Source of the DNA: an uncultured Actinomycetes bacterium
GTDB taxonomy: Bacteria; Actinomycetota; Acidimicrobiia; Spongiisociales; DATADW01
Reading direction: 5' to 3'
Length of the DNA stretch: 64,000 nt
Assembly: GCA_963824995.1 (NCBI GenBank)
Contig: CAWGRK010000006.1
Span: 442,273-506,272, forward strand
Part shown: positions 9,458 to 53,100 of the stretch, in pieces
Layout of the letters: each line of letters starts with the position of its first letter
Numbering within the stretch: the first letter of the stretch is position 1
The notes under the pieces: generated by a model
Seen by the model: only the letters and a program-made list of their open reading frames with translations
Databases searched by the model: none
Told to the model about the DNA's origin: nothing
Made by a program: the position numbers and the translations under genes

Positions 9458-10794
9458 TCAGCGCTTGCGACGCTTGCCGCCGAGCAACCCGGGGAGCCCT
9501 GGTATGGCCCGGCCCTCCGCCACCATCTTCATGAGCCGTTGTGTTTCGCCGAACTGCTTGAGCAGTCCGTTGACCTCCTGCGAGGTGGTGCCCGACCCCG
9601 ACGCGATTCGCCGCTTCCTGCTGCCGTTGATCAGCTTGGGGTTGTGGCGCTCGTCGGGCGTCATAGATCTGATGATCGCTTCGACCCGTCCCACGTCGCG
9701 GTCCGAAACCTCGACATTGCGGAGGAGGGACCCGGCGCCCGGCAGCATAGCAACCACCTGGTCTAGCGACCCCATCCGTCTCACCTGCTGGAACTGGTCC
9801 AGGAAGTCTTCGAAGGTGAAGCTGGCGGTCCGCATCTTGTCGGCGAGCTTCTCGGCCTGCTGGGCATCCCAGGTCTGTTCCGCCTTCTCGATCAGGGTCA
9901 GGACATCACCCATGCCCAGGATCCGAGATGCCATGCGGTCGGGATGAAACACCTCGAAGTCGTCGAGCTTCTCCCCCACCCCGGCGAACTTGATCGGGCT
10001 CCCCGTCACCTCGCGCACCGAAATGGCGGCACCGCCCCTGGCGTCGCCGTCGAGCTTCGAGAGGATGATCCCGGTCAGCTTCACGTATTCGAGGAATCCC
10101 TTGGCCACATTGACCGCGTCCTGCCCGTCATCGCGTCAACGACGAGCAATGTCTCGGTGGGGTTGGAGGCCTTGTTCAGATCGGCCAACTCGCCCATCAG
10201 CTCGCGGTCGATCTGCAGCCTTCCCGCCGTGTCCACCACGACCACGTCGCGGCCCAATCGGTTCGCCTCCTTGAGGGCGGCCTTGACCAGCCGCGCCGGC
10301 CGCTGGGTACGGTCGGTGAAAACCGGGACGCCGATGCGCTCGCCCAGTGTCTGCAGTTGCTCGATGGCGGCGGGGCGCTGTAGATCGGCCGCCACCAGCA
10401 TCGGCTGCTTTCCCTGGCGGACGAGATGACGAGACAGCTTGGCCGCCGACGTGGTCTTTCCTGACCCCTGCAGACCGACCATCAGGATCACGGTCGGTGG
10501 CTGAGAGGCTATTGAGAGCCGTGCCGGCTCGGTCCCGAGGGTGGTCACCAACTCCTCGTTGACGATCTTCACGACCTGTTGGCCCGGGGTGAGGCTCTTG
10601 GTCACCTCGGTGCCCACGGCGCGCTCTTTCACCCGCTTGAGCAGATCGCGGGCCACGGCGACGTTCACATCCGCTTCGAGCAGGGCGAGCCTGATCTCGC
10701 GGAGCGAGGCGTCCACGTCGGCCTCTGAGAGCCGGCCCTTGCCTCGCATCCGGTCGAAGATCCCGCCGAGTCGCTCGGTGAGTGTGTCGAACAC
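9458..10794 (-). CDS. ffh: signal recognition particle protein Ffh (frameshift ~10120, probably a sequencing error)
   Basis: [63 protein letters not shown]. Confidence 0.95.
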
Positions 10795-10899: not shown

Positions 10900-11716
10900 A
10901 TGGATAACCTCTGGGTGGTCGTCTTGGCGGCCGCGGTTGCGCTCGTCCTCGGGGGCGTTGCCGGGTATGCGCTGGCCTACTTCCGGCTCCGGCACCTCGA
11001 GGAGCGCTGGCGCTCATTCGTGGCAAGGCACAAACGTGAGGCCGAGATCGCCCAGGCGCTGTGTCATCGAGTTGACCCACCGATTGGAAACTGCCCAGTC
11101 GAGTGCTGACACCCGGGACCTCCAGGCTGCACTGGAAGAGAGCCAGGGCAAGCTGTTGGACGCCGAGTCCAAGATCGCCCTCCTCAGACCTGAGGTCGAT
11201 GCACTTCATCGCCTCCTCACCGAGAAGGAGCAGGAGATCCTCCTGCTCAAGGAATCTGCCAGGGCGGCTGGCCCCACCGTCGAGGCGCCGGCATCTGTCG
11301 TCGATGCGTCGATGCCTGCCATCGCGAAGGCCGGCGGAGATGGGTCGCCTGACACCGGAGACGCCAGATCGGACTCCGAGATCGATGCCGCACCGACGGC
11401 AGATGGTGCCCGTCCGCCGGCCGAGTTGCCCCCTGAGTTCGCCCCTCCAACTGCGTCAGGAGATCCGAGCAGCACCGCGGGGGGAGTCAGGACAAACGGG
11501 CTGGCCGAGGATGACCTGACCGCCATCGCCGGTATCGGGCCGGCGACGGCACGACGGCTCCGCCAAGAGGGCCTGACGAGCTTCGCCCACATCGCGGCGC
11601 TCAGCGACGAAGCGATCGACGAACTCGCACCCAAGCTGAAGAACGCCGCGGTGCGCATCAGAAGTGACCGCTGGGTCGAGCAGGCGAGGAAGCTGGTGGC
11701 GGAACGCACCGATTGA
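10900..11716 (+). CDS. membrane-anchored coiled-coil protein with C-terminal helix-hairpin-helix (DUF4332-like) domain (frameshift ~11060)
   Basis: N-terminal TM helix, coiled coil, Ala/Pro linker, DDLTAIAGIGPATARRLRQEGLTSFAHIAAL...WVEQARKL. Confidence 0.7.
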
Positions 11717-11744
11717 TCGTCGCCGCAATGCACCCAGAGCCGGT

Positions 11745-14472
11745 ATGACTGGCGAATCTGACCGGGACGAAGCGCTGCGCGCCGACATCCGCCGGCTCGG
11801 CACCCAGTTGGGTGAGGCACTGGCCCGCCAGCACGGAACAGGGTTGCTCGACCTGGTCGAGAAGGTGCGGGCCCTGTGCAAGGCGATACGCCACGACCAC
11901 GACCCCGAGGCGACATCGCAACTCGATGCAGCTCTTAGCTCGATCGACCTCGGCACCGTCATCCAACTCGTCCGCGCCTTCACCGCCTACTTCTACCTGG
12001 CCAACGTTGCCGAGCAGACTCATCGGGTGGGCGAAATGGTCGAGGAAGACCGCAGGTTCGAAGCGACCGTCGATCGGATCATCGAATCCAGAGTCGACAG
12101 CGAACTGATCTCATCGGTGGTTTCGCGCCTCGAGCTGCGCCCGGTGTTCACGGCCCACCCCACCGAAGCCGCCCGGCCGACCACCCTCAACAAGCTTCGC
12201 ACGGTCGCCGACCTGCTCGATGACCGGCTCGACCCACGCGCCACTGCCGCGGACCGGCAGCGGATCGACCGGCGGGTCGCCGAAGTGATCGACCAGCTCT
12301 GGGAGACCGACGAGCTTCGGATGGAGAAACCGGAGCCGGTGGACGAGGCCCGGTCGGCGATCTTCTACTTCGACAGGCTCGTGAGCGACGTCCTCCCGGA
12401 CCTGGGCGAGGAGTTGGCGCTACAACTCGACCGGCTCGACCCCTACCGCGATCGCAACCGGGCACCCATCCGATTCGGGACATGGGTGGGTGGCGACCGT
12501 GACGGCAACCCATCGGTCACCGCAGACGTCACCAGACGGGTCCTCGAGTTGCAGCACGACCACGGTCTCAGGCGTTTGATCGAGGCCGTCGAGCGGCTCG
12601 CCGAGGATCTGTCCATATCGGACAGGACGTGGGATGTGTCGCCCGATCTGGTTGCTTCGCTCGAGGGCGACCGCGAGTTACTCCCCGCAACCTGGCAGCG
12701 GTTCCACGGACTCAATGCCCATGAGCCTTACAGGCTCAAGCTCGCCTACATCCACAGCCGTCTTGGCGCCACCCGCACGAGAATCCGCGAAGGCGCCCGG
12801 CATCAGCCCGGTGTCGACTATTCGGGGCCATCGGAGTTGGCAGCCGAGCTGGAGTTGCTGCGGTCCTCGCTCTTCGAGAACGCCGGCGAACTGATAGCCG
12901 AGGGATCGGTGATGCGGCTCATCAGGGTGGTGTCCACCTTCGGATTCCATCTCGCCACCTTGGACGTCCGCGAGCACGCCGACCGGATACATGATGTTGT
13001 GGGCCAATTGCTCGAGCGCGTCGGTACCTCCTATGCAGACCTCAACCCCGAGGAGCGCTTCGACGTGCTCTCCGGGGAGCTGGCGGGGGGCAGGCCACGG
13101 CAACCCCCGCAGCCCGGCTGGGCGAGGGGGCCGAGGAGACGATGGCGACCTTCGCCGGGATGGCATCCGCCCTCGACAGGTACGGGCCGGCGGTGATCGA
13201 GTCGTACATCGTCTCGATGACCCGGGGAGCCGACGACATCCTCGCCGCCACGGTGCTTGCCAGGGAGGCCGGGCTCGTGGACCTGCACGATGGCCTGGCC
13301 CGCATCGGGTTCGTTCCGCTCTTTGAGACGATCGACGAGCTGAGACGCAGCGGCGAGATCCTCGACCGGCTTCTCTCCGACCGTTCCTACCGCCGGGTGG
13401 TCTCGCTGCGGGGCGACCTCCAAGAAGTGATGTTGGGGTACTCCGACTCGAACAAGCAGGGTGGGATCACCACCAGCCAATGGGAGATCTACAAGGCGCA
13501 GCGTCAGTTGCGCAACATGGCACGCCACCACGGCGTCACGCTCCGTCTCTTTCACGGTCGCGGTGGCACCATCGGCCGAGGTGGCGGACCGACCCATCAA
13601 GCGATCCTCGCCCAGCCTTTCGGCACCATCGACGGGCCGCTCAAGGTCACCGAGCAGGGCGAGGTGATCTCCGACAAGTACGGGCTCCCCGGGCTTGCAG
13701 CGCGCAACCTGGAACTGGCGGCAGGCTCGGTCCTCGAGGCCTCGCTGCTCCACCGCGCCTCGTGCCAGCCCAAGGAGGTGCTCGACCGCTGGACCGAGGC
13801 GATGGAGGTGGTATCGGAAGCGGCCCACGCCGCATACCGCACCCTGGTGGACGATCCGGGGATGGTGCGGTTCTTCCTCTCCGCCACTCCGGTCGAGGAG
13901 TTGGCGTCGATGAACATAGGGTCGTGTCCCTCGCGCAGGCCGGGTAGCGGGGCCGGGCTCGATGACCTGCGAGCCATCCCCTGGGTCTTCGGGTGGACGC
14001 AGTCGCGCATGATCATCCCCGGGTGGTACGGGGTGGGGACCGGTCTGGCCATGGCGCGGGAACGTGCGGATATGGCGAGGTGCTCGACGAGATGCACGAG
14101 CAGTGGTCATTCCTCCAGACCTTCGTGTCGAACGTCGAGATGACGCTCACCAAGGCCGACCTGGGCATCGCCAGGAGGTACGTAGAGGAACTGGTCGACC
14201 CGGCAGTCCAGCCGCTGCTCGACATGATCCTCAAAGAGCACGACAGGACCATGGGCGAGGTTCTCAGGCTCACCGATCGCCCAGGGCTGCTGGCCACCAA
14301 TCCCCTGCTCCGCCGCACCCTCGAGGTGCGCGACGTCTATCTCGACCCGCTCAATTACCTCCAGGTCTCGCTGTTGGCGCGGAGCAGGGCAGGTGAGACC
14401 GACCCTCTGCTCGAGCGCGCCCTCCTGCTCACCGTCAACGGCATCGCCGCCGGGATGCGCAACACCGGATGA
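11745..14472 (+). CDS. ppc: phosphoenolpyruvate carboxylase (frameshifts ~13100 and ~14065)
   Basis: [70 protein letters not shown]-terminal GMRNTG. Confidence 0.96.
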
Positions 14473-44812: not shown

Positions 44813-45877
44813 GTGCAACTGCCGGTGATGCCTCCCCTCAAGCCGATGCTGGCCAAGTCGCATCCGGCGATCCCCGAGGGCATGTCCTACGAGCCGAAAT
44901 TCGACGGGTTCCGTTGCATCGTCTTCCGCGACGGCGACGAGATCGAGTTGGGAAGCCGCAACGAGCGCCCCCTGACCCGCTACTTCCCCGAGTTGGTCGA
45001 GGCACTCCGTGAGCAGTTGCCGGAGCGATGCGTGGTCGACGGCGAGATCGCGGTGGCCATCGATGGCGAACTCGACTTCTGGTCGCTCCAGCAGCGGATC
45101 CACCCGGCGGCGTCCCGGGTGCAGATGCTGTCGCGCAAGACCCCTGCGTGGTTCATCGCATTTGACCTGCTGGCACTCGACGACGTCTCGTACATCGAAT
45201 CTCCCTTCTCCGAGCGGCGGGGCGCTCTGGATTCGGCGTTTCGAGGCGTGACCCCTCCGGTGTACGTGGCCCCGATCACCGACGACATCTCTCTGGCCCG
45301 GGGTTGGTTCGAGCGCTTCGAGGGGGCTGGACTCGACGGGATCGTCGCCAAGCCCCACGACCTCCGGTATGTCCCCAACAAGCGGCTCTGGGTGAAGGTG
45401 AAGCACGAGAGGACGGCCGATTGCGTGGTGGCCGGCTTCAGGTGGTTCCGAAGCGATCGCGTGGTGGGCTCGCTGCTCCTCGGCCTCTACGACGCCGCCG
45501 GAGACCTGCACCCGATCGGTGTGATCGGGGCATTCAGCGCCCTACGCCGCCGCCAGTTGCTCGACGAGATCGCCCCGTACCGGTTGGAGGACGGCGAGTC
45601 GCACCCGTGGACCTCCAACCCGGAGTGGCAACAGGGCGCCGGGCAGCCCGGATCGCGCTGGAACTCGGACAAGGACCTCTCCTTCGAGCCGCTCCGCCCG
45701 GTGCTGGTGGTGGAGATCGCCTATGACTGGATGGAGGGTGACCGGCTCCGCCACACCGGTCAGTTCCGCCGCTGGCGGCCCGACCGCGAGCCCGAATCGT
45801 GCACCTTCGACCAACTCGACCGACCGAAGAGCTTCGACGTGAGCGACGTGCTGTCGCCACCGAGTGACCTGTCGTGA
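44813..45877 (+). CDS. ligC: ATP-dependent DNA ligase, LigC type
   Basis: MQLPVMPPLKPMLAK, YEPKFDGFR, GAGLDGIVAK, KVKHERTADCVV, RWRPDREPESC. Confidence 0.92.
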   Translation: MQLPVMPPLKPMLAKSHPAIPEGMSYEPKFDGFRCIVFRDGDEIELGSRNERPLTRYFPELVEALREQLPERCVVDGEIAVAIDGELDFWSLQQRIHPAASRVQMLSRKTPAWFIAFDLLALDDVSYIESPFSERRGALDSAFRGVTPPVYVAPITDDISLARGWFERFEGAGLDGIVAKPHDLRYVPNKRLWVKVKHERTADCVVAGFRWFRSDRVVGSLLLGLYDAAGDLHPIGVIGAFSALRRRQLLDEIAPYRLEDGESHPWTSNPEWQQGAGQPGSRWNSDKDLSFEPLRPVLVVEIAYDWMEGDRLRHTGQFRRWRPDREPESCTFDQLDRPKSFDVSDVLSPPSDLS

Positions 45878-47145
45878 CCACCACGTCGCTCCCGTCGGCG
45901 CGGCGGGTGCAGTTCACCTATCTGTTGCTCACCCTGCTCTCGACCCTCGCCGCCTCGTTCATCTGGGGCATCAACACGCTGTTCCTGCTCGATGCCGGGC
46001 TGAGCAACACCGCAGCGTTCGCCGCCAACGCCTTCTTCGCAGTCGGCCAACTCATCTTCGAGGTCCCCACCGGGGTGGTAGCCGACGTGTGGGGGCGGCG
46101 CGCCTCGTTCCTTTTGGGCTGCGCCACCCTGCTCGTGTCCACATTGCTCTACCTCTACATGTGGGACGTGCAGGCGGGCATGTGGGGATGGGCCATCGCC
46201 TCGATCCTGCTCGGTCTCGGGTTCACCTTCTTCTCGGGGGCGGTCGAGGCATGGCTGGTGGACGCCTTGAACGCCACCGGATTCGAAGGACGTCTGGAAT
46301 CGGTGTTCGGCCGGGCCCAGGCGGTGAGCGGGGCGGCGACCCTGATCGGGTCGGTCGCCGGGGGCTTCATCGCCCAGGAGACCAACCTCGGCGTGCCTTA
46401 CATATTGAGAGCCGTGGTCCTTGCCGTCACCTTCGCGGTGGCGTTCTTTCTGATGCGGGACCTGGGCTTCTCGCCGCAGCGCGGCGAGCGGGTGACCAGC
46501 GAGGTGCGACGGGTGGTCAAGGGCTCGATCGACAGCGGGTTGCGCAACCCGCCGGTCCGTTGGTTGATGCTGGGCTCACCCTTCATCGCCGGCGTCGGCT
46601 TCTACGCCTTCTACGCCTTCCAGCCCTATCTGCTCGAGTTGTACGGGGACGAGGGCGCCTACGGAATCGCCGGTCTTGCCGCCGCAGTCTTCGCCGTTGC
46701 CCAGATCGTGGGCGGTCTCGCCTCGCCGTGGGTGCGTGGGCTCTTCGGCCGCCGCACCACCGGGTTGATCGCGGCCTCGGTGGTGGGAGTGGCTTCACTG
46801 TTCATCGTCGGATCGACCGATAGCTTCTGGGTAGCGGTGACGATTCTGCTGTTGTGGAGTCTCGTCATCGCGGCGACCATCCCGCTTCGGCGGACATTCA
46901 TCAACGGGATGATCCCATCGGCGCAGCGTGCGACAGTCCTCTCCTTTGACGCTCTGCTCGGCTCCGGTGGGTCAGCCGTTCTCCAACCGATCCTCGGCCG
47001 GGTGGCCGACGTTTCCGGCTACGCCGCTTCCTACCTGGTGAGCGCCGTCATCGCCGCCGCCGAACTCCCCTTCCTCTGGCTAGCCCGCCGCGAAAGGGAC
47101 CCGGCCGATGTGGTCGACAACGATGAGGGAAGTCCCGCGCAATAG
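45874..47145 (+). CDS. MFS transporter
   Basis: About 12 hydrophobic segments, FEVPTGVVADVWGRR. Confidence 0.92.
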   Translation: MTTTSLPSARRVQFTYLLLTLLSTLAASFIWGINTLFLLDAGLSNTAAFAANAFFAVGQLIFEVPTGVVADVWGRRASFLLGCATLLVSTLLYLYMWDVQAGMWGWAIASILLGLGFTFFSGAVEAWLVDALNATGFEGRLESVFGRAQAVSGAATLIGSVAGGFIAQETNLGVPYILRAVVLAVTFAVAFFLMRDLGFSPQRGERVTSEVRRVVKGSIDSGLRNPPVRWLMLGSPFIAGVGFYAFYAFQPYLLELYGDEGAYGIAGLAAAVFAVAQIVGGLASPWVRGLFGRRTTGLIAASVVGVASLFIVGSTDSFWVAVTILLLWSLVIAATIPLRRTFINGMIPSAQRATVLSFDALLGSGGSAVLQPILGRVADVSGYAASYLVSAVIAAAELPFLWLARRERDPADVVDNDEGSPAQ

Positions 47146-47162
47146 CTCCGCAGTTTGCGGTA

Positions 47163-47450
47163 TCAGCTCGGTAGGGGAAGTAGGCAAGCCCTGCAAGGCA
47201 CGTACCCCTCGTCCTCGGCCCGCACTCGACTCACCTTCCGCGGTGTGTGGGTGCGGAAGCCGAGCCTGTTCGCATAGTCCTGGCCCTTTCGAAGCCACTC
47301 GCAGGTCTCCCTGGCGTGATAGGCCGCGCCACCATCGGTGATCCACACGGATTGGGGGAGCCGGCTCGAGCAGATGCTGCATTGGCTGCCGGGAAGGCCA
47401 TGGATGCAGTCCTGGTCTCCGCCGGATTGGGTTGCCGATTGCGAGGTCAT
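47163..47450 (-). CDS. small Cys/His-rich putative double zinc-finger protein
   Basis: CIHGLPGSQCSIC and VWITDGGAAYHARETC...GYVPCRAC; ATGA overlap with the ARH-NADAR stop. Confidence 0.75.
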   Translation of the reverse strand: MTSQSATQSGGDQDCIHGLPGSQCSICSSRLPQSVWITDGGAAYHARETCEWLRKGQDYANRLGFRTHTPRKVSRVRAEDEGYVPCRACLLPLPS

Positions 47451-48985
47451 CGAGCCACTCCGTCGACGGTCGCCAGCGGGGCAACCTCGGCGCGGATCCC
47501 CATCAAGAGCCTGCCTAGCCGGTTCTGGCCAATGCCATCGACCTTGCCCCAGAAGTTGTCACCCCACCAGTTCTCCTCGATCAGCTCGGCCGATCCCGTC
47601 GCAGCCAGCACGTCAGCGAGCCTCGTCCCGGGCATGAACTTGGCGCGAAGGATGCGCTCCATGATCCCCAGCTTCATGTCTTCCCAGCCGGGCCTCAGCG
47701 CCACTCGATTGCCCAAGACCATGGCGCCCCACGGCGTGGGTAGCAGTCGTATCCGCTCGGCATCATCTGGCTCGAGCGCCTTCGCCGCTTGGTAGGCGTG
47801 CTCTGCCGTGGGGTACCGGCGCCCCTCGAAGATGAACGGACTACGGCTGAAGTTGGAGAGGAGGCCGAACTCCCCCTCGAAACGACCGACTCGGGACGGT
47901 GTTGGAGAGGGCTCGACCCCCACCTCCGGGGAAGTGCCTCCGGCGAGAGCCATAAGCCCATCCGCGACGTCCCGGATCCCGTCTGCGTACTCGAGTCCAG
48001 CGAGCCACCGGCTCGGCAGCCTCGACTCTCCGACATATGCGCCGGCGAGGTTGCCGGCCATGGCAGCCACCGTGTCGGCGTCGTAACCCATGTTTGCCGC
48101 GGTCACGATCACACGCTCAGAATCCTCAGGTGTCCGGAGGAAGCACCAGATCGCAGCGGGGAGCGATTCGAGCACGAATGCCCCGTTGTGAGTCATGGCG
48201 AATAGGCGGTCGGGCGGCCAGTCGAGGTTGCTTGCGACGAAGAGGATCCGATCCACCAAACGCACCGGGTGACCCGATGCGCCGGGCTTGCGCTCGGGAT
48301 GACCGGGATCGTCGATGTGGTCGAGCAGGGTCGAGAGTTCGCTCATCAACTCGGTCACATCGAGCGTTCCAAAGGGGGTGTTCACCAGGCGGGCCACCAG
48401 GAACGCCTGTGCGACCGCGGAGGCGACCGCCATGGCGTCATGGTGGGTGATCACTGTGCTCAGCGCGGCGTCGTGGACCAGCATCGCGGTGTCGGTCGGG
48501 TTCGCCAGCCCGACCGGGGCTGCCCTCATGGCGGCGCCGTTGCCGGCCGATGCAATGCCGGATTCGTACCACGGGAGGCCGCGTCGGAGGTTCTCGCACC
48601 CGGCAATACACGTATGGCCACGGCCGCGGCCCACGAGCTCCCAAGCCTCGAACCTCGCCGCGAGATCCTCGGGAACCAGACTCCCGCTCTCGAGATAGCT
48701 CTCCGCGATGCAGAGCGTCATCTCGGTGTCATCGGTGAAGGTCCCTTCGGGCCCTCCTATCCAATGTCGGTGAGGGATGAAGTCGCGGACCTCTCCGGGG
48801 AAGATCGACCGGATCCTCTCGACCGACTTGCCCTCCATGGGCCGACCCAGTGCATCCCCGATGGCGCCTCCGAGCAGGCACCCGCGGTAGTCGTCCGGCG
48901 TCCCCATGAGCGAGTTCGGCAGCAGTGCCGGGATTGGCAGTTTGACCCACCACTGCCCCAAGTTCATGCCCGCTGACCCGTCCAT
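47447..48985 (-). CDS. ADP-ribosylglycohydrolase (ARH/DraG) fused to a C-terminal NADAR domain
   Basis: AIGDALG, FTDDTEM, GNGAAMR, DADTVAAMAGNLAGA (ARH); LSNFS..YPTAEHAYQAAK..KF..LIEENWWGDNFWG..GQNRLGRLLM (NADAR); AAGGAGAAGG RBS; single uninterrupted frame. Confidence 0.92.
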   Translation of the reverse strand: MDGSAGMNLGQWWVKLPIPALLPNSLMGTPDDYRGCLLGGAIGDALGRPMEGKSVERIRSIFPGEVRDFIPHRHWIGGPEGTFTDDTEMTLCIAESYLESGSLVPEDLAARFEAWELVGRGRGHTCIAGCENLRRGLPWYESGIASAGNGAAMRAAPVGLANPTDTAMLVHDAALSTVITHHDAMAVASAVAQAFLVARLVNTPFGTLDVTELMSELSTLLDHIDDPGHPERKPGASGHPVRLVDRILFVASNLDWPPDRLFAMTHNGAFVLESLPAAIWCFLRTPEDSERVIVTAANMGYDADTVAAMAGNLAGAYVGESRLPSRWLAGLEYADGIRDVADGLMALAGGTSPEVGVEPSPTPSRVGRFEGEFGLLSNFSRSPFIFEGRRYPTAEHAYQAAKALEPDDAERIRLLPTPWGAMVLGNRVALRPGWEDMKLGIMERILRAKFMPGTRLADVLAATGSAELIEENWWGDNFWGKVDGIGQNRLGRLLMGIRAEVAPLATVDGVAR

Positions 48986-49001
48986 CGATTCCTTCTCCTT
49001 G

Positions 49002-49022
49002 TTTTAGTCGTTGTGACTATAA
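49002..49022. promoter_or_regulatory. putative NrtR operator overlapping an extended -10 of the ARH-NADAR gene
   Basis: TTTTAGTC-GTTGT-GACTATAA 21-bp near-palindrome; minus-strand TGnTATAGT at 49016-49024. Confidence 0.78.
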
Positions 49023-49031
49023 CATCGGTTC

Positions 49032-49799
49032 TTGTCAAAGCGACCTTTACCGTCAATACTCAACAGAATCCGCGCCAGTCCCCCACCGGACTACGACCCC
49101 GACGCCTTCCCTCGGGTCGCCGTGACAGTGGACCTCGCGATCCTGACGTTCAATGAAACCTTCGAGGTTCTGCTCGTCGAACGAGGCGCCGACCCCTTCG
49201 CCGGCTCTTGGGCTCTACCCGGGGGATTCATCAAGCCCGACGAGTCTCTGGAGGAAGCCGCCAGGCGGGAACTCGCCGAGGAGACCGGGGTCACCGCACC
49301 GTCCACGCTGACCCAGTTCGGTGCATATGGCGATCCCGACCGCGATCCCCGCATGAGGGTGGTGACTGTGGCCTTCATGGCAGTGATCCACGATGACGTC
49401 GAGCCGGTCGGGGGCAGCGATGCCGCCTCGGCGTCATTCATGCCGCTCAGTGATCTCGTCGGACGAGGGGCGGGGACTCCTCTTGCGTTCGACCACAAGA
49501 TCATCCTCGGCGACGCACGGCGGCGGCTCATCAGTGACCTCGAGACCACTCCCCTCGCAACGGCTTTCCTGGATCGGCGATTCACGATCTCGGAATTGCG
49601 TTCGGTTTACGAGGCGGCGATCGGACGCCCTCTCGAGCCCGCCAACTTCCGCCGGAAGGTCCTCTCGATCAAAGGGTTCATCAAGCCCACCGGAGTCCAT
49701 GCCACTCCCGATGTCGAGGGCGGTAGGCCGGCCGAGTTGTTCGAGCGAGGACGCGCCGGCGTCTTGTCGCCGCCACTCCGGTTCGCCACACAAGAGTGA
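49032..49799 (+). CDS. nrtR: NrtR family Nudix-wHTH transcriptional regulator (start codon uncertain)
   Basis: [21 protein letters not shown], Nudix box [60 protein letters not shown]. Confidence 0.9.
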
Positions 49800-49815
49800 C
49801 GCTGCGCCGAGTGGG

Positions 49816-50112
49816 TCAGCTGACTCGCAGAAGCTCCCTGCTGAGGATCGCTTCGGCGTGATCGGCCTGGAGGGCCGCCAACTTTTCGTTGTACTGCCCC
49901 GCCGCGATCGGTGCGTATATGGCCACCCCGATCGTCGCCAGCAACCAGGCGACTCCATCTGTGCCCGCACCGAGTAGGGCGGCACCGATGACCATGACGA
50001 TCACCTTCCCCGGAGTCGTCACGTAGAAGAGCCCGAGCGGGCCGAAGAAGAACCCGAGCGCGAGCGCAGCGAGCTTCGATTTCGGCCGGCTGTGAACCGT
50101 CGGCTCGATCAT
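49816..50112 (-). CDS. small membrane protein (TM2-like N-terminus)
   Basis: KSKLAALALGFFFGPLGLFY plus two further hydrophobic segments; AGGAGG RBS. Confidence 0.7.
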   Translation of the reverse strand: MIEPTVHSRPKSKLAALALGFFFGPLGLFYVTTPGKVIVMVIGAALLGAGTDGVAWLLATIGVAIYAPIAAGQYNEKLAALQADHAEAILSRELLRVS

Positions 50113-50179
50113 GTGTCAGTTCCTCCTATTGATGCGGACCACGACGTCCGAGACTTCGATGTCAGGCATCATCTCTGGA

Positions 50180-50191
50180 GGGTGTGACAAA
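50180..50191. repeat. 12-bp direct repeat GGGTGTGACAAA, copy 1
   Basis: Identical to 51601-51612; the two copies bracket the DUF222-HNH gene. Confidence 0.85.
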
Positions 50192-50280
50192 AGGACCTCG
50201 GCGGCAGCCGAGTCGACACCAAATGAGCCGATCGACCTACAAACAGAATCTGGCGCGTGTACCCGCGCATCGCCGGGCCA

Positions 50281-51551
50281 TCAGGGTGGGTCCGGTCCCG
50301 TGGTGTATTCGTGTCCCAGTGGACTGGTCCAGATGATGGTCCCGTTGGGTCCGGTTCGCATCCTCCACCCGGCCTCCTTGAGCCGGTGGTCGTGGCGGCA
50401 CGCCGGGTTGAGGTACTCCACCAGGGTGGGTCCCCCCTTGGAGTGGTCGACCACATGGTCGATGTCCGAGCGGGTGGCGGGCATGCGGCACCCGGGGAAG
50501 ACACAGGTGGGGTGACGGCGCCTCGACATACCTGCGTTGCGCGCCTGGTGGGTCTCCTCCTGGTGGTCCCGTCCCAGAGGACGGCACCACTGTCGGGGTG
50601 GGTGACCGCCACCCGCCACACCGAGCCCACCTGGGTGGCGGCCACCCGGCGGGCGATGTCGGCCACCACCGGCCCGTACCCCGGTATCTCCCCCGGGTTC
50701 TCCGACAACCGGGTGAGGGTGGCCAGGTCCACTCTGAGGTCGATGACACCTCTGCCGTCCGCAACCGTCCCCGCAGTCCAGGAGGTCCAAGAGGACGTCG
50801 CAACGCACCTGGTCGATGCTGCGGGGGTCGTCCTCTCCCTTGGCCACCCCGGCCAGGGAGTCCAAGCGGCCGAAGGCGGCGTTGGCCCGCTCGGGGGGCA
50901 AGGACCAGGCGATGAGGTTGGCGGTGCCGTCGGGGTTGGCCGACAGTTCCACCCTTCTTCCCTCCACTCCCCGCTGGTAGCGCTCCTGGGCTGCTGCGGG
51001 GTCGACGGTGAGCACCAGGCGGCGTGTCCGCGCTCCCAACTGGCCGGTGGTCTGCGAAGAAGCCCGCTCCAGACCACAGAGACCACCGCTTGGGCCTCCT
51101 CGTCGTCCAGGGTGGCCACCTCGCTGCACACCACCCGGGCCCGGGGGAGGTCGATCGACCCGGAGCGGAGCGCCGCGACCAGCTCGGGGAGCCTCTCCAG
51201 GTCCCGGGCCAGTTGCAGCAGCGACACCGCCGCTCTCCGGGTGAGACAGAGAGCGGCCCGGATCTCGTCGGCGGCGAACTCGTCGTCGTCGTCGGAGACC
51301 AGGTCGCTCGCCTCAGAAGAGGCGTCGGCCACCCGGGCCACCAGACCCAACAACTCGGCCTGCTGATGGGACACCTGGCGGGCGTGGGCGGCCATCACCA
51401 CCACCAGATCGAAACCGGGGAGGGAGTCCAGGTCGATCCCGGCCAGTACCCGGGCAAGCTCGGGACCGGGGGGCATCTCCTCGAGACCGTCGGGGAGGAG
51501 CGAGGGTGGCGGTGGTGGCCACAGCTCCGAGATCACTTCCCCTGCCAGCAT
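50281..51551 (-). CDS. DUF222 (REP13E12-like) HNH endonuclease domain protein (frameshifts ~51065, ~50765, ~50530)
   Basis: FAADEIRAALCLTRRAA, GSIDLPRARV, GEIPGYGPV, CVFPGC..DIDH..GGPT...L.PACRHDHRLK..W, WTSPLGHEY. Confidence 0.88.
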
Positions 51552-51588
51552 GATCACTCCAATGGTTCACGGTGGGGAAGTAGGTCAC

Positions 51589-51646: not shown

Positions 51647-52123
51647 TCAGGGACGCTGCTTGATCCCCCGCTCGAGAAGGCTGACCACCTCGACGATTCG
51701 ATCGGCCCTCAACTCGGGTCGTCGCTTTGTCGAGTCGATCCAACGCAGATAGGCATTTCGGTAGAACTGCGCCAGCGAATCGAAGAACGCACCTGCCTCA
51801 GGTGAATCGTCGAGAGCCGCCTGGATGTCGGCGGCCAATCCATCTCGCTGGGGCCCTTCTGGGAACAGCGTCACCTCGACTAGGTCACCGGGGCCGATGC
51901 CACAGTCCCGCCGCCATGCCGGGCCGAGTGCGACGCCAAGCCCCTCTCCGAGCGGTTCGACCACTCCCCGATACCCCATCCCACCGATCGTCCCAGCAAC
52001 ATGGTGTCTCGGCTTCTTCCCCCACACCTCGTCCGGATCGAACGGCACGGGAACCATCACCCGTCCACTGTTGTCGGTGGTCACCTCGGTCGGATACGAC
52101 CTGACATTCAGTGAGTCGGGCAT
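51647..52123 (-). CDS. DUF1905 + YdeI/OmpD-associated (OmdA) protein
   Basis: VPFDPDEVWG, LGPAWRRDCG, FFDSLAQFYRNAYLRWIDSTKRRPELRADRI. Confidence 0.85.
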   Translation of the reverse strand: MPDSLNVRSYPTEVTTDNSGRVMVPVPFDPDEVWGKKPRHHVAGTIGGMGYRGVVEPLGEGLGVALGPAWRRDCGIGPGDLVEVTLFPEGPQRDGLAADIQAALDDSPEAGAFFDSLAQFYRNAYLRWIDSTKRRPELRADRIVEVVSLLERGIKQRP

Positions 52124-52147
52124 CCAGGCATCGTTGCACTCATTCGG

Positions 52148-53100
52148 TTACGGAGCGCTGTTGCGGAGGACGGATCGGACCTCGGGCACCGGATATGCGA
52201 TAACTTCCGACAGCACCGCCTCCCCCACCATCGGCTCCACACCGGACCACAAGGCACCGTCCCACCACCGGAACTCGCCGACCCAGGTCACTTGGACACC
52301 GAATGGGTAACCCTCGGCCAGGCCGGCGTCGTCGTGGCTGGTCTCATAGGTGTGCCTGGCGGGCGGGTCTCCCTCCGAACCCGCAGCAACGGGGGCATCC
52401 TCGAATTGATACGCAACCGATCCGCCGACGGCGCCATCGCCGAAGTCCCACTGATAGGTGGTGATCCAAGCCCACGCTTCTACCCCTATGGACAAACCGG
52501 TTAGCTCGTCAATGACCTCGAACCCGAATGGGTCGATCTGGGTATCACCCTCGTACCAAGCCCACGTTTCCAAGCCTGTGAGACCCCGAACGTGCGGGCT
52601 CTTCGACAATTCGGTTTGCGGGATCAACTCGGCGACCCGACCCCACACGTCTGCAGCCCACGTCTCGGAGACACACGTGTCATCGTGGACGAAACCATCC
52701 AACCCAAATGTGGCACCTGGAGGCCCACCGGGAACTGGTGCACCTGGGCCGGAGAACCGGGGAAGTGCAGAACGTTGACACGTTGACCCGCCCAGGCACC
52801 TTCGACCCAGTAGAGAAGCTCGAATTGCCAAGGGTCGGACGCCTTCGACATCCGGACAATCGCACACAAGATCCCACGACCCCAGTTCATGGTCCGTCCG
52901 ACATACTCGTCGAGATCCTCCGGATCTCCTGTCCTGGTCGTCTCGGTCTTGCATCCAGCTCGACTTCGGAAGCGAGCGTGCAAATGGATCGATGAGCCTC
53001 GGTCCGAGTTCAGATGGTCACCGCTTCGACGAAGTTGTCAACCAAGATCAGCCGGCATAGCGATCAGACCAACTGAGCTCATGGTTCGAAACTGGCTACC
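52148..53100 (-). CDS. secreted PKD-like domain protein (5' half disrupted, start unresolved)
   Basis: SPHVRGLTGLETWAW, YQWDFGDG, HTYETS, VQVTWVGEF, YPVPEVRSVL. Confidence 0.6.

Follow-up and report, generated by a model that had tools for sequence, protein, structure and literature searches.

The question raised by this locus, a three-gene cassette of about 2.7 kb from a soil actinobacterium (47163-49799), is what an NrtR-type repressor controls when it stands beside a protein with two ADP-ribosyl hydrolase domains and no ADP-ribosyltransferase (ART). Phages and rival bacteria commonly attack by ADP-ribosylating proteins and nucleic acids; the "ARG-centric" systems, proposed to reverse such foreign ADP-ribosylation, are so far a prediction. 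The best explanation is that the locus is an "ARG-centric"-type cassette, repressed by NrtR and induced by ADP-ribose, whose two-headed hydrolase would act against foreign adducts, a reading to which we give an even chance of being right. The cassette is close to the simplest case in which that prediction could be tested, with one repressor, two putative operators and one candidate bifunctional enzyme, and natural relatives with and without it at the same chromosomal site add to its testability. It bears on whether an ADP-ribose-sensing repressor can drive product-induced repair, on how ARH and NADAR domains divide protein and nucleic-acid adducts between them, and on whether a two-zinc protein targets DNA. 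The features of the locus, numbered within the window (the whole 64,000-nucleotide stretch of DNA that was analysed), are as follows.

47146..49815, no strand: the variable cassette as a whole, from the stop of the MFS gene to the stop of the 98-aa membrane gene
47163..47450, minus strand: gene of the 95-aa two-zinc protein (open reading frame; ATGA overlap with the upstream gene)
47447..48985, minus strand: gene of the ARH-NADAR fusion, 512 aa (open reading frame and profile matches)
48008..48883, minus strand: ARH (ADP-ribosylglycohydrolase) domain, residues 35-326 (PF03747, E 1e-72)
47486..47872, minus strand: NADAR domain, YbiA type, residues 372-500 (PF08719, E 2.3e-20)
48990..49000, minus strand: Shine-Dalgarno of the operon, AAGGAGAAGGA (read from the sequence)
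49002..49022, no strand: predicted NrtR box 1, 21-bp palindrome with GT-N7-AC core (sequence and counterparts in relatives)
49016..49024, minus strand: extended -10 (TGnTATAGT) of the ARH-NADAR operon promoter, in box 1 (read from the sequence)
49029..49049, no strand: predicted NrtR box 2, GT-N7-AC core (conserved in nrtR upstream regions)
49032..49060, plus strand: nrtR promoter, -35 TTGTCA, spacer of 17 nt, -10 AATACT (promoter scan)
49032..49799, plus strand: nrtR open frame, start uncertain (open reading frame and profile matches)

All three frames lie where the original prediction had placed them (47163-47450 and 47447-48985 on the minus strand, 49032-49799 on the plus strand), and the ATGA overlap that couples the fusion gene to the gene of the 95-aa Cys/His protein is present at 47447-47450. 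The nrtR gene is divergent from the fusion gene, and the 46-bp gap between its frame and that gene holds two 21-bp NrtR-type boxes. The fusion, of 512 aa, retains the catalytic motifs in both hydrolase domains. The full PF03747 (ADP_ribosyl_GH) model is covered by residues 35-326, and the match of residues 372-500 to PF08719 (NADAR) reaches 73.9 bits against a cut-off of 35.1; the AF2 model (mean pLDDT 76.9, pTM 0.85) has a low-confidence linker at residues 354-375. In the ARH domain, the motifs T84-D85-D86 and D302-x-D304-T305 were invariant across 12 fusions and aligned to MJ1187 and 6DRE, which together with DraG are its closest solved relatives; 6DRE is presumably the Tri1 immunity protein. 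Although the domain shares its fold and di-metal motifs with DraG and Tri1, it scored far under the cut-offs of both equivalog models (109.1 bits against 337 for DraG, TIGR02662; 94.5 bits against 490 for Tri1, NF041672), with no DraT or Tre1 partner in the window, so that these scores point to no particular ARH substrate. The NADAR domain matched E. coli YbiA (2B3W) with an E of 3.4e-21, PTAEHAYQAAK falling on PTSEHYFQAQK, and its E395-H396 aligns with the Glu-His of YbiA. This glutamate is the family-defining one of YbiA-type NADARs as described in PMC11125620, where all NADAR/YbiA proteins reported as tested, YbiA included, hydrolyse guanosine-ADPr. An assignment to the DarT1-associated (BC4488) NADAR antitoxins was rejected, the motif being of the Glu type and not the catalytic Asp, and no adjacent DarT was found in the window.

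The identification of the regulator as NrtR was likewise borne out. Its product combines a Nudix domain (PF00293, E 8.9e-23) with a winged helix (PF21906, NrtR_WHD, E 1.4e-12), the latter in a single copy in the genome, and its closest solved relative is Shewanella NrtR 3GZ5 (E 1e-31, residues 19-237); the NCBIfam equivalog NF050029 gave 110 bits, under its cut-off of 400. The Nudix box GX5EX7REUXEEXGU is intact here and the signature is strict in 10/10 NrtRs of these loci, a state that correlates with ADPR pyrophosphatase activity in what Rodionov et al. (2008) report on this signature (PMC2330246). By analogy with soNrtR and syNrtR, as described in the same paper, ADP-ribose would relieve the DNA binding of this repressor.

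Two boxes overlapping both divergent promoters are operator-like and of the NrtR type, since they match the 21-bp palindromes with a GT-N7-AC core that Rodionov et al. (2008) give for NrtR operators (PMC2330246). Box 1 (TTTTAGTC-GTTGT-GACTATAA) is the palindrome that the original prediction had noticed over the operon -10; it proved real, with 7/8 arm positions complementary, and was passed over by a repeat search with a seed of 6, its exact arms being 5 bp. On the minus strand it contains the extended -10 TGnTATAGT, about 24 nt upstream of the AAGGAG Shine-Dalgarno and ATG 48985; the Shine-Dalgarno, AAGGAGAAGGA, supports this ATG as the start of the fusion gene. The consensus promoter scan did not list this -10 because no -35 lies at 16-18 nt. 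Counterparts of box 1 were found at five related loci: L028, L057 (perfect 9-bp arms), L043, L059 and L125; TGnTAT(A/T)GT stands at the equivalent place in L028, L043 and L059. Box 1 is the sole site with at most one mismatch to the loose pattern TTAnnGTC-N5-GACnnTAA in the 2.9-Mb genome, and as shuffled genomes gave 0-1 such sites, what makes it convincing is where it lies and that relatives conserve it, and not rarity alone. Box 2 (TTCTTGTC-N5-GACCTTTA), missed in the earlier work, covers the -35 of the nrtR promoter, which was the only promoter-like site that the scan found in 47050-49950 (shuffles, 0.2 +/- 0.5). Its TTCTTGTCAA was invariant in all six aligned nrtR upstream regions, from genes whose proteins are 48-89% identical, and TTCTTGTC occurred in seven of nine nrtR upstream regions against 0.012 per kb genome-wide. 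Both boxes recur upstream of nrtR orthologues as little as 48-55% identical.

From these elements the following circuit can be proposed. The NrtR repressor, with its intact Nudix box, would bind the two boxes, thereby covering the hydrolase operon promoter at its extended -10 and the leaderless nrtR promoter at its -35, and would keep both off by default until free ADP-ribose releases it. Induction would then yield a single protein in which two unrelated ADP-ribosyl hydrolase domains are joined, of which the ARH domain may remove protein-linked (N- or O-glycosidic) ADP-ribose and the YbiA-type NADAR domain guanine-linked ADP-ribose from DNA or RNA. ADP-ribose from both reactions would feed back on the repressor, whose Nudix site may degrade it and so reset the switch. 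The substrates are most likely adducts of foreign enzymes, from phages or competitors, because no ADP-ribosyltransferase is coupled to the cassette. Several findings count against this explanation. Phosphatase and chaperone genes, which go with more than half of the ARG-centric systems in print, are missing from the cassette. The NADAR domain has YbiA as its closest match and falls just short of the riboflavin-intermediate N-glycosidase model (TIGR02464, 71.2 bits, cut-off 73.7). In nrtR an ATC stands for the ATG of five relatives, so that production of the repressor may be poor. The housekeeping surroundings and weak PADLOC matches, the low DraG and Tri1 scores, the NrtR orthologues without ARH and the fusion homologue without NrtR described below, the incomplete genome with its one sirtuin, and the lack of the zinc gene in the nearest relative weigh on the same side.

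The cassette is a discrete unit of gain and loss, of 2.7 kb, within an otherwise syntenic stretch. In two genomes of the same genus the MFS and 98-aa genes are direct neighbours, separated by 79 bp in G002 and 16 bp in G004; the nearest relative, the 89%-identical G003, carries ARH-NADAR and nrtR at the same site without the zinc gene, and G000 carries all three, the zinc gene being in G000 only. These patterns indicate that nrtR and the hydrolase stay together and that the zinc gene is sporadic, and they narrow the supposed accessory block between smc and acyP: that region is syntenic within the genus, and only 47146-49815 is variable. Synonymous divergence was 0.40 for nrtR and 0.25 for the fusion, against 0.63-0.70 for the flanking genes. 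NrtR stands beside ARH genes in independent lineages. An NrtR_WHD ORF was no more than 6 kb away from the ARH match in six of 79 ARH loci; four of these are Acidimicrobiia-type divergons, and the others are a gammaproteobacterial nrtR-SPFH-x-ARH and a verrucomicrobial NADAR-nrtR-ARH-Tpt1/KptA. Elsewhere nrtR is divergent from two ARH genes (G009) or from ARPP-1 plus PP2C (G026), and NrtR orthologues of 54-55% identity lie beside a Zn-dehydrogenase-like gene, not ARH (G014, G034). Phosphatase or chaperone accessory genes are present in the related loci L059 (R-P phosphatase, TY-Chap3 and HD phosphatase), L029 (a fusion homologue whose 4.9-kb contig holds an HD phosphatase but no NrtR) and L124.

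Within the window, no ART, SIR2 or NAD-salvage family was found among the 62 ORFs scanned (9 + 53, a set that excludes the smc ORF and 51825-52310), in agreement with the original prediction. Across the genome, which is 85% complete, neither Tpt1, ADPrib_exo_Tox, NadA nor NAPRTase was found, nor DarT in a weak search that, like that for Enterotoxin_a, had no positive control; given this completeness and these searches, an endogenous ART may still exist. One sirtuin (SIR2) gene lies on another contig. The cassette neighbours are housekeeping genes, not a defence island, and PADLOC gave weak matches only. Two RibD_C genes are located 7-10 kb from the cassette, outside it, and no riboflavin synthesis gene is adjacent.

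This setting also suits a more domestic role, which we consider possible, if rather unlikely: the housekeeping recycling of NAD by-products, in which NrtR would read ADP-ribose as a sign of NAD consumption and the fusion would act on endogenous products (small derivatives of ADP-ribose, for instance O-acetyl-ADP-ribose from the cell's own sirtuin, or self-made ADP-ribosylated proteins), feeding the Nudix site for salvage. NrtR regulons mostly concern NAD metabolism, and nrtR-draG is filed under endogenous reversible ADP-ribosylation where PMC2330246 treats it; the SIR2 gene, the active-type Nudix box in all ten NrtRs checked and the housekeeping neighbours point the same way. However, the cassette is dispensable, being absent at its site in two genomes of the genus, the genome, as far as it is complete, offered no NadA or NAPRTase to be served, and the synonymous divergence of the cassette is below that of its flanks. 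Furthermore, the chaperone, ARPP and phosphatase add-ons of its relatives are typical of proposed conflict systems. Were NAD by-product recycling its only function, the cassette would be ordinary.

The 95-aa protein, on the evidence above, is a sporadic add-on to nrtR and the hydrolase. The original prediction had expected the three genes to occur together, and here the neighbourhood check was divided: the association of nrtR with the hydrolase held, but the zinc gene was not co-conserved, and its profile matched one of 79 ARH loci and none of 80 NADAR loci. The protein has two candidate zinc sites, C14/H17/C24/C27 and H45/C50/C86/C89; in nine family sequences C24, C27, H45, C50, C86 and C89 were invariant, and C14 and H17 were present in most. 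It matched no family in Pfam, NCBIfam or PADLOC. Its AF2 model (mean pLDDT 76) had N-Ada as its top match, with scores that are weak and within the range of chance matches (VIA Z 4.2, rmsd 2.8 over 49 residues of model 31-90; Foldseek E 1.7). The nearest named Atlas cluster was Ada_Zn_binding (0.77), and profile and sequence comparison with N-Ada (PF02805) gave no sequence-level link. In this protein, as in the N-Ada of E. coli Ada, a C-terminal CxxC comes after a ligand pair, but the 95-aa protein has His as its first ligand and an extra N-terminal CHCC site. The zinc domain belongs to a family of 995 representative clusters, with no Pfam match to the domain in the members scanned; fused forms with a Pfam partner numbered seven of the 34 scanned, and all partners were DNA-associated (UvrD helicase twice, TnsA-like, SWI2/SNF2-type I R, PC4, sigma-70 r4 and HTH_23). 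The domain occurs elsewhere on DNA helicases and transposase-like proteins, and the translationally coupled 95-aa protein probably helps the enzyme to find nucleic acid. A bolder version, which we regard as doubtful, makes it an Ada-like two-zinc lesion finder that brings the YbiA-type NADAR to ADP-ribosylated DNA. In that case the operon would encode a repair response, induced by its own product, that strips ADP-ribose from DNA modified by the guanine-specific ARTs of phages or soil neighbours while the ARH domain cleans proteins, and the zinc domain would represent a large unnamed nucleic-acid-targeting family shared with helicases and transposase-like proteins.

The proposed circuit depends on a repressor that is made, and the start of nrtR is uncertain, because the TTG that opens its frame (49032) coincides with the -35 hexamer of the scanned promoter and the ATG of its relatives corresponds to ATC 49068. 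A later start at GTG 49116 was ruled out by the N-terminal YDPxAF motif, which aligns to 3GZ5. Six relatives have the same promoter layout followed by an ATG after 6-7 nt, and the ATG of five aligned relatives falls on ATC 49068, 7 nt past the -10, as expected of a leaderless mRNA. It is conceivable, though we think it quite unlikely, that a change of ATG to ATC has broken the switch in this genome, leaving little NrtR and a constitutive operon. Besides the position of the TTG, this is suggested by the divergence from G003 between TTG and ATC, which by eye falls on every codon position, as it would in non-coding DNA. Nevertheless, the nrtR frame is open and under purifying selection relative to G003 (dN/dS 0.15), and TTG 49032 would be usable from a transcript beginning within box 1. 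The ATC may also be a single-base assembly error, as split genes occur elsewhere in the assembly and none of the public contigs compared spans 48980-49073.

That the fusion is a left-over antitoxin or immunity gene, an orphan hydrolase that has lost a DarT1-, YarT- or Tre1-like toxin partner, appears very unlikely. NADARs are antitoxins of DarT1 and YarT in the pairs described in PMC11125620, 6DRE is among the solved ARH relatives, and no toxin gene is found now. Against this, the NADAR domain is of the YbiA and not the DarT1-linked BC4488 type, the Tri1 model is far from reached, and none of the six NrtR-linked ARH loci has a DarT-like neighbour, the sole ART-fold neighbour being the Tpt1/KptA of the verrucomicrobial locus (L106); a dedicated repressor with conserved operators, moreover, favours a regulated enzyme over a toxin-matched antitoxin. 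Metabolite damage control without ADP-ribosylation, in which the NADAR would be an N-glycosidase of the YbiA type for reactive intermediates of riboflavin, the ARH would have a different ribosyl compound as substrate and NrtR would be a neighbour by coincidence, is hardly credible despite the near miss of TIGR02464, YbiA as best solved match and the JGI name "ribA/ribD-fused uncharacterized protein" on a close homologue, given the conserved NrtR boxes on the operon promoter, the clustering of NADAR, nrtR, ARH and Tpt1 in an unrelated phylum, the reported hydrolysis of guanosine-ADPr by YbiA (PMC11125620) and the distance of the RibD_C genes, with no riboflavin synthesis gene adjacent.

The ARG-centric reading that we prefer can be placed among systems already described. 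With the DarT1-NADAR and YarT-YbiA pairs, as presented in PMC11543638 and PMC11125620, the fusion shares the YbiA-type fold and motif; in contrast to them, it has no ART partner, is joined to an ARH domain under NrtR, and is without the N-terminal DNA-binding extension ascribed there to DarT1-linked NADARs. The nrtR-draG regulon was predicted by Rodionov et al. (2008, NAR 36:2047; PMC2330246) as an "ADPR" regulon, represented in Streptomyces by nrtR1-draG-SCO1765 (NrtR group Actinobacteria-2a). There too, NrtR stands beside a DraG-like ARH with a predicted 21-bp GT-N7-AC site and a label of reversible ADP-ribosylation, but nrtR is the first gene of a single three-gene operon, whereas here a divergon carries two boxes, and NADAR goes unmentioned in that account of the regulon. 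In 2016 SCO1766 was still described as an uncharacterised DraG homologue (PMC5087735).

The closest precedent is that of Iyer, Burroughs, Anantharaman and Aravind (2022, Viruses 14:1977; PMC9503650), who in section 3.8 predict ARG-centric host systems that counter viral ADP-ribosylation: ART-less, with Nudix-HTH repressors, an occasional NADAR and a product-induced circuit against phage ARTs. The interpretation of our locus as such a circuit is reasonable, but the idea is theirs and not new; the class is itself a computational prediction, and membership means a match to a predicted class. According to that section, a Nudix-HTH or WYL negative regulator occurs in more than 42% of these systems and a phosphatase in a little over 55%, phosphatase and peptide-binding chaperone being frequent and not obligatory. 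Shared with them are an ARH/ARG hydrolase without coupled ART or sirtuin, the Nudix-HTH regulator, the actinobacterial host, NADAR as a second ADPr-processing domain, gain and loss of modules between close genomes and the proposed product-induced derepression; related loci also hold the R-P phosphatase, HD phosphatase, TY-Chap3 and ARPP-1 of that paper. The present cassette differs in being minimal, without phosphatase, chaperone, REase or ARPP, in having NADAR and ARG domain fused in one polypeptide, and in its DNA-associated small two-zinc protein, which section 3.8 does not list. The circuit idea and the nrtR-draG regulon, as set out in these papers, are thus already in print; what this locus adds is an ARH-NADAR fusion placed under NrtR, a DNA-associated add-on with two zinc sites and the ATC in place of the nrtR ATG of five relatives.

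The cassette lies in a window that covers positions 442273-506272 of contig C6 in an assembly (G000) of 2.9 Mb, with 66% G+C and 85% complete, whose public relatives carry the labels Acidimicrobiia or 'Actinomycetes' MAGs. Its genes and control elements are as follows:

47163-47450, minus strand: zinc gene, an ORF for a Cys/His protein of 95 aa
47447-48985, minus strand: ARH-NADAR fusion gene, 512 aa, with PF03747 and PF08719
49002-49022: box 1, 21 bp, GT-N7-AC core, TTTTAGTC-GTTGT-GACTATAA
49029-49049: box 2, 21 bp, GT-N7-AC core, TTCTTGTC-AAAGC-GACCTTTA
49032-49037, plus strand: TTGTCA of the nrtR promoter found by consensus scan, followed after 17 nt by AATACT, ending at 49060
49032-49799, plus strand: nrtR open frame, with PF00293 (Nudix) and PF21906 (NrtR winged helix)

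The 512-aa and 95-aa genes are coupled by an ATGA overlap. The ARH domain of the fusion protein (PF03747, residues 35-326, E 1e-72) keeps T84-D85-D86 and D302-x-D304-T305, invariant in 12 fusion homologues; its nearest solved structures are MJ1187, 6DRE, DraG and ARH3, and it scores far below both the DraG and the Tri1 equivalog cut-offs. The NADAR domain (PF08719, residues 372-500, E 2.3e-20) is of the YbiA type (E 3.4e-21 against 2B3W), has a Glu-His motif aligned to that of YbiA and narrowly misses the TIGR02464 cut-off. In an AlphaFold2 model of the fusion (mean pLDDT 76.9, pTM 0.85) both domains are folded, and residues 354-375 connect them as a linker of low confidence. The best solved relative of the regulator is the Shewanella NrtR 3GZ5 (E 1e-31, residues 19-237), and the cassette nrtR encodes the one NrtR winged-helix domain of the assembly. 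The strict Nudix signature is kept in all ten NrtRs checked; in the text consulted of Rodionov et al. (2008, PMC2330246), an intact signature correlates with ADPR pyrophosphatase activity.

Whereas the original prediction had treated the whole stretch between smc and acyP as an accessory block, comparison with three related genomes (G002, G003 and G004) confined the variation to the cassette. In G002 and G004 the order smc, ligase, MFS, 98-aa membrane gene, DUF222, OmdA ... acyP, mutM, rnc is kept, and the gap between the MFS and 98-aa genes measures 79 bp and 16 bp, respectively, with the cassette absent. At the same position, G003 has ARH-NADAR and nrtR without the zinc gene, and the source assembly (G000) has all three. 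The expected neighbourhood was thus recovered in G003 for nrtR with ARH-NADAR and not for the zinc gene. Given the clean flanking synteny in G002 and G004, the variable unit is the 2.7-kb cassette (47146-49815), inside which the zinc gene makes up an additional indel. Among 41 relatives, G003 is the only other genome with the full fusion, 89% identical. When G000 was compared with G003 (L028) from 44813-45877 through to 49799, synonymous divergence was 0.40 for nrtR and 0.25 for the fusion, against 0.70 for the MFS gene and 0.63 for the ligase gene; for this one genome pair, the lower values fit a cassette with its own history. By eye, the spacer between the MFS and membrane genes of G002 seems to retain a segment similar to the nrtR 3' end, which would imply loss in G002 rather than gain in G000. 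No direct repeats flanking the cassette borders were seen by eye.

In the DUF222/HNH-type gene beside the cassette, the N-terminal DUF222 part and the HNH-like C-terminal part fall in different frames (50169-51557 and 50281-51129); the relatives of this gene in G002, G003 and G004 align piecewise, at 42-82% identity. Elsewhere in the window, PEP carboxylase is encoded by a split gene of two ORFs that overlap (11664-14143), and the ffh ORF (9458-10108) covers the C-terminal part of SRP54 only. The split ppc and the short ffh ORF suggest indel errors in the assembly.

Both boxes lie in the 46-bp gap between the two start codons, and GT-N7-AC is the core described as common to NrtR operators in the text consulted of Rodionov et al. 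(2008, PMC2330246). The palindrome of box 1 was read by inspection, its exact arms of 5 bp being below the repeat-search seed of 6. An extended -10 element, TGnTATAGT, lies inside box 1 on the minus strand, about 24 nt 5' of an AAGGAG Shine-Dalgarno sequence and the fusion ATG. Together with the ORFs and domains, this confirms the three genes and the palindrome over the operon's -10 that had been proposed; box 2 is added as a correction to the control region. The nrtR promoter, whose -35 falls within box 2, is the only promoter-like site found in 47050-49950, against 0.2 +/- 0.5 in shuffles. When upstream regions of nrtR orthologues (48-89% protein identity) were compared, TTCTTGTCAA was invariant in 6/6 aligned regions and a box-1 counterpart was present in all six, that of locus L057 being a perfect palindrome (TTAGTGTCA-GAG-TGACACTAA); TTCTTGTC occurred in seven of the nine regions examined, against 0.012 per kb genome-wide. 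Such conservation of boxes and promoters across orthologues gives good support to the view that NrtR represses both divergent promoters through these putative operators. Six relatives share the layout of a -35 TTGTC(A/T), 16-17 nt, TAnnnT, 6-7 nt and ATG, from which their nrtR mRNA is predicted to be leaderless. Box 1 is the only genome site with at most one mismatch to a loose NrtR pattern; at two mismatches or fewer there are 17 sites, against 16-25 in shuffled genomes, and because these weaker sites are no commoner than in shuffles, no second regulon member is claimed. The best other strict-pattern match is at C10:357225, and two further TTCTTGTCAA sites in the genome are not NrtR-like and were discarded as targets.

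The position of the leaderless ATG in five relatives is occupied by ATC in the window (49068-49070). The nrtR frame is under purifying selection in comparison with G003 (dN/dS 0.15). The ATC may be a base error; other genes of the assembly are split (ppc, ffh and the DUF222/HNH gene), and no public contig spanning 48980-49073 was found in four DNA runs, which gave short, low-depth contigs. It may also represent a weakened allele, with the repressor poorly translated in G000, or the in-frame TTG at 49032, upstream of the ATC and coincident with the -35 hexamer, may serve as start on another transcript. The GTG at 49116 was rejected as too late, since the conserved N-terminal YDPxAF motif aligns to residue 11 of 3GZ5.

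Linkage of NrtR to ARH was also found in other genomes. Among 79 ARH loci taken from one-genome-per-species contigs, each 1.4-14 kb long, an NrtR winged-helix ORF was present at six, and its absence from the others is possibly due to the shortness of the contigs. One of the six is G003 (L028) and three are Acidimicrobiia-type divergons (L043, L057 and L059); the others are a gammaproteobacterial nrtR-SPFH-x-ARH (L098) and a verrucomicrobial (Chthoniobacterales) NADAR-nrtR-ARH-Tpt1/KptA series, all in one direction (L106:4259-7663). The latter is an independent NADAR-NrtR-ARH linkage with an ART-fold enzyme, the NAD-dependent RNA 2'-phosphotransferase Tpt1/KptA. The gene calls in L043 and L059 are crude, being longest ORFs in high-GC DNA; in both, the ARH ORF (L043:1817-3673, L059:3586-5358) extends about 230-260 aa beyond the ARH domain, without a Pfam match in the extension, and is followed by an HDAC-like (PF00850) gene. 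Besides these, L059 has TY-Chap3, an HD phosphatase and an R-P-type phosphatase with a second ARH. In six relatives NrtR has an orthologue that is full or near-full in length, and the neighbours there are the fusion (G003), two divergent ARH genes (G009), a divergent 551-aa ARPP-1 (PF20208) protein and then a PP2C phosphatase (G026:C35, L124:3-2550) or, in place of ARH, a Zn-dependent dehydrogenase-like gene (G014 and G034; nrtR identity 54-55%); in G001 nrtR is at a contig end. The G014 and G034 loci (L122 and L123) each have their own GT-N7-AC boxes upstream. The precedent claimed for NrtR beside draG-like genes holds: '#nrtR1-draG-SCO1765' of Streptomyces is described as an NrtR regulon of reversible ADP-ribosylation in the text consulted of Rodionov et al. 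(2008, PMC2330246).

The fusion itself is uncommon, both domains being present in 12 of the best 120 fusion homologues listed. A metagenome search with the NADAR part gave 80 loci, with ARH fused at none, NrtR at none and an ARH ORF directly upstream at one; the lack of fusion among these 80 indicates that the NADAR of the fusion is akin to common stand-alone NADARs. No record in the phage collection covered at least 80% of the fusion, and 466 matched one domain or the other. NADAR was found in 5/401 genomes of a phylum sample; three matches in large genomes are C-terminal in ORFs of 387-418 aa, with ARH and NrtR absent within about 6 kb, and these three do not explain SCO1765.

The zinc protein has three close homologues among 5.8 billion proteins. 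A zinc protein of 64% identity, P0123, is encoded on a 152-kb contig. A nine-sequence profile of its domain matched 995 representative clusters at E <=0.001 (287 at <=1e-10), most members being stand-alone proteins of 80-100 aa. C24, C27, H45, C50, C86 and C89 are invariant in the nine sequences, and C14 and H17 are found in most, a pattern that suggests zinc binding at two sites. The protein has no Pfam, NCBIfam or PADLOC match, none of the members scanned has a Pfam match in the domain itself, and a PDB sequence search gave nothing useful. Seven of 34 longer members scanned carry a Pfam partner, DNA-associated in every case: UvrD-type helicase (two), a TnsA-like endonuclease with RNAP alpha-CTD and HTH, an SWI2/SNF2 type I R-like protein, PC4, sigma-70 region 4 and HTH_23. 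We read the protein as a probable DNA-associated two-zinc domain. For its AF2 model (mean pLDDT 76), the Ada N-terminal zinc domain was the top match of both aligners, with weak scores: E 1.7 with Foldseek, which found nothing at E <=0.001, and Z 4.2 with VIA-align (rmsd 2.8 over 49 residues), its best and in the chance range. As to a possible relationship to Ada, the nearest named Atlas cluster is Ada_Zn_binding (0.77), and sequence profiles found no link. The zinc gene has an ARH neighbour in the window and also in L043, as an ORF of 100 aa that follows the ARH gene; in genome G114 it lies next to a different ARH, to which it is convergent. Its profile matched 1/79 ARH loci and 0/80 NADAR loci, and a metagenome search with the close alignment gave 91 pattern matches, none confirmed. 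The association with ARH is sporadic, so that of the proposed three-gene linkage the NrtR-ARH part stood and the zinc gene did not. At G000:C1:146018-146220 (L027), a PIN-domain gene is adjoined by a relative of the zinc gene that has a broken frame and is depleted in Cys.

We hypothesize that NrtR would keep both promoters shut and that ADP-ribose would open them. The ARH head of the fusion would strip ADP-ribose from proteins and the NADAR head from guanine bases; in the text consulted of PMC11125620, all NADAR/YbiA proteins tested removed ADP-ribose from guanine. The ADP-ribose set free would hold the operon open until consumed by the Nudix site or other enzymes. As had been claimed, no ART was found among the 62 ORFs scanned in the window, and none of four ART families was found in the assembly, the DarT and Enterotoxin_a searches having been run without a positive control; the adducts would therefore be of foreign origin. 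We give the whole model, an NrtR-gated and ADP-ribose-induced fusion acting on foreign adducts, an even chance; for the regulation by itself, the probability is considerably higher. The chief alternative, in which the cassette would serve endogenous recycling, appears unlikely to us. The assembly holds one SIR2 gene (C5:20283-20828), and the NadA, NAPRTase, Macro and Tpt1 families were matched nowhere in its 85%-complete sequence; genes for NAD synthesis may be among those that the assembly lacks.

The interpretation originally offered is thus partly supported, and the core of its circuit is already published as a prediction. In section 3.8 of Iyer et al. (2022, PMC9503650), ARG-centred systems are described in actinobacteria and other phyla without a coupled ART or sirtuin, with a Nudix-HTH or WYL repressor in more than 42% and a phosphatase in a little over 55%. 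In the proposal made there, the ARG sets free a few ADPr molecules that induce the operon against phage ARTs, the same product-induced circuit. No experimental follow-up on NrtR-linked ARH systems or SCO1765-1767 was found in the literature searched. The cassette is useful mainly as a compact test bed for such predicted ADP-ribose-removal systems, its interest being otherwise moderate. To the published systems the window adds a minimal form, an ARH-NADAR fusion under NrtR, a divergon with two boxes, the added zinc gene and the ATC.
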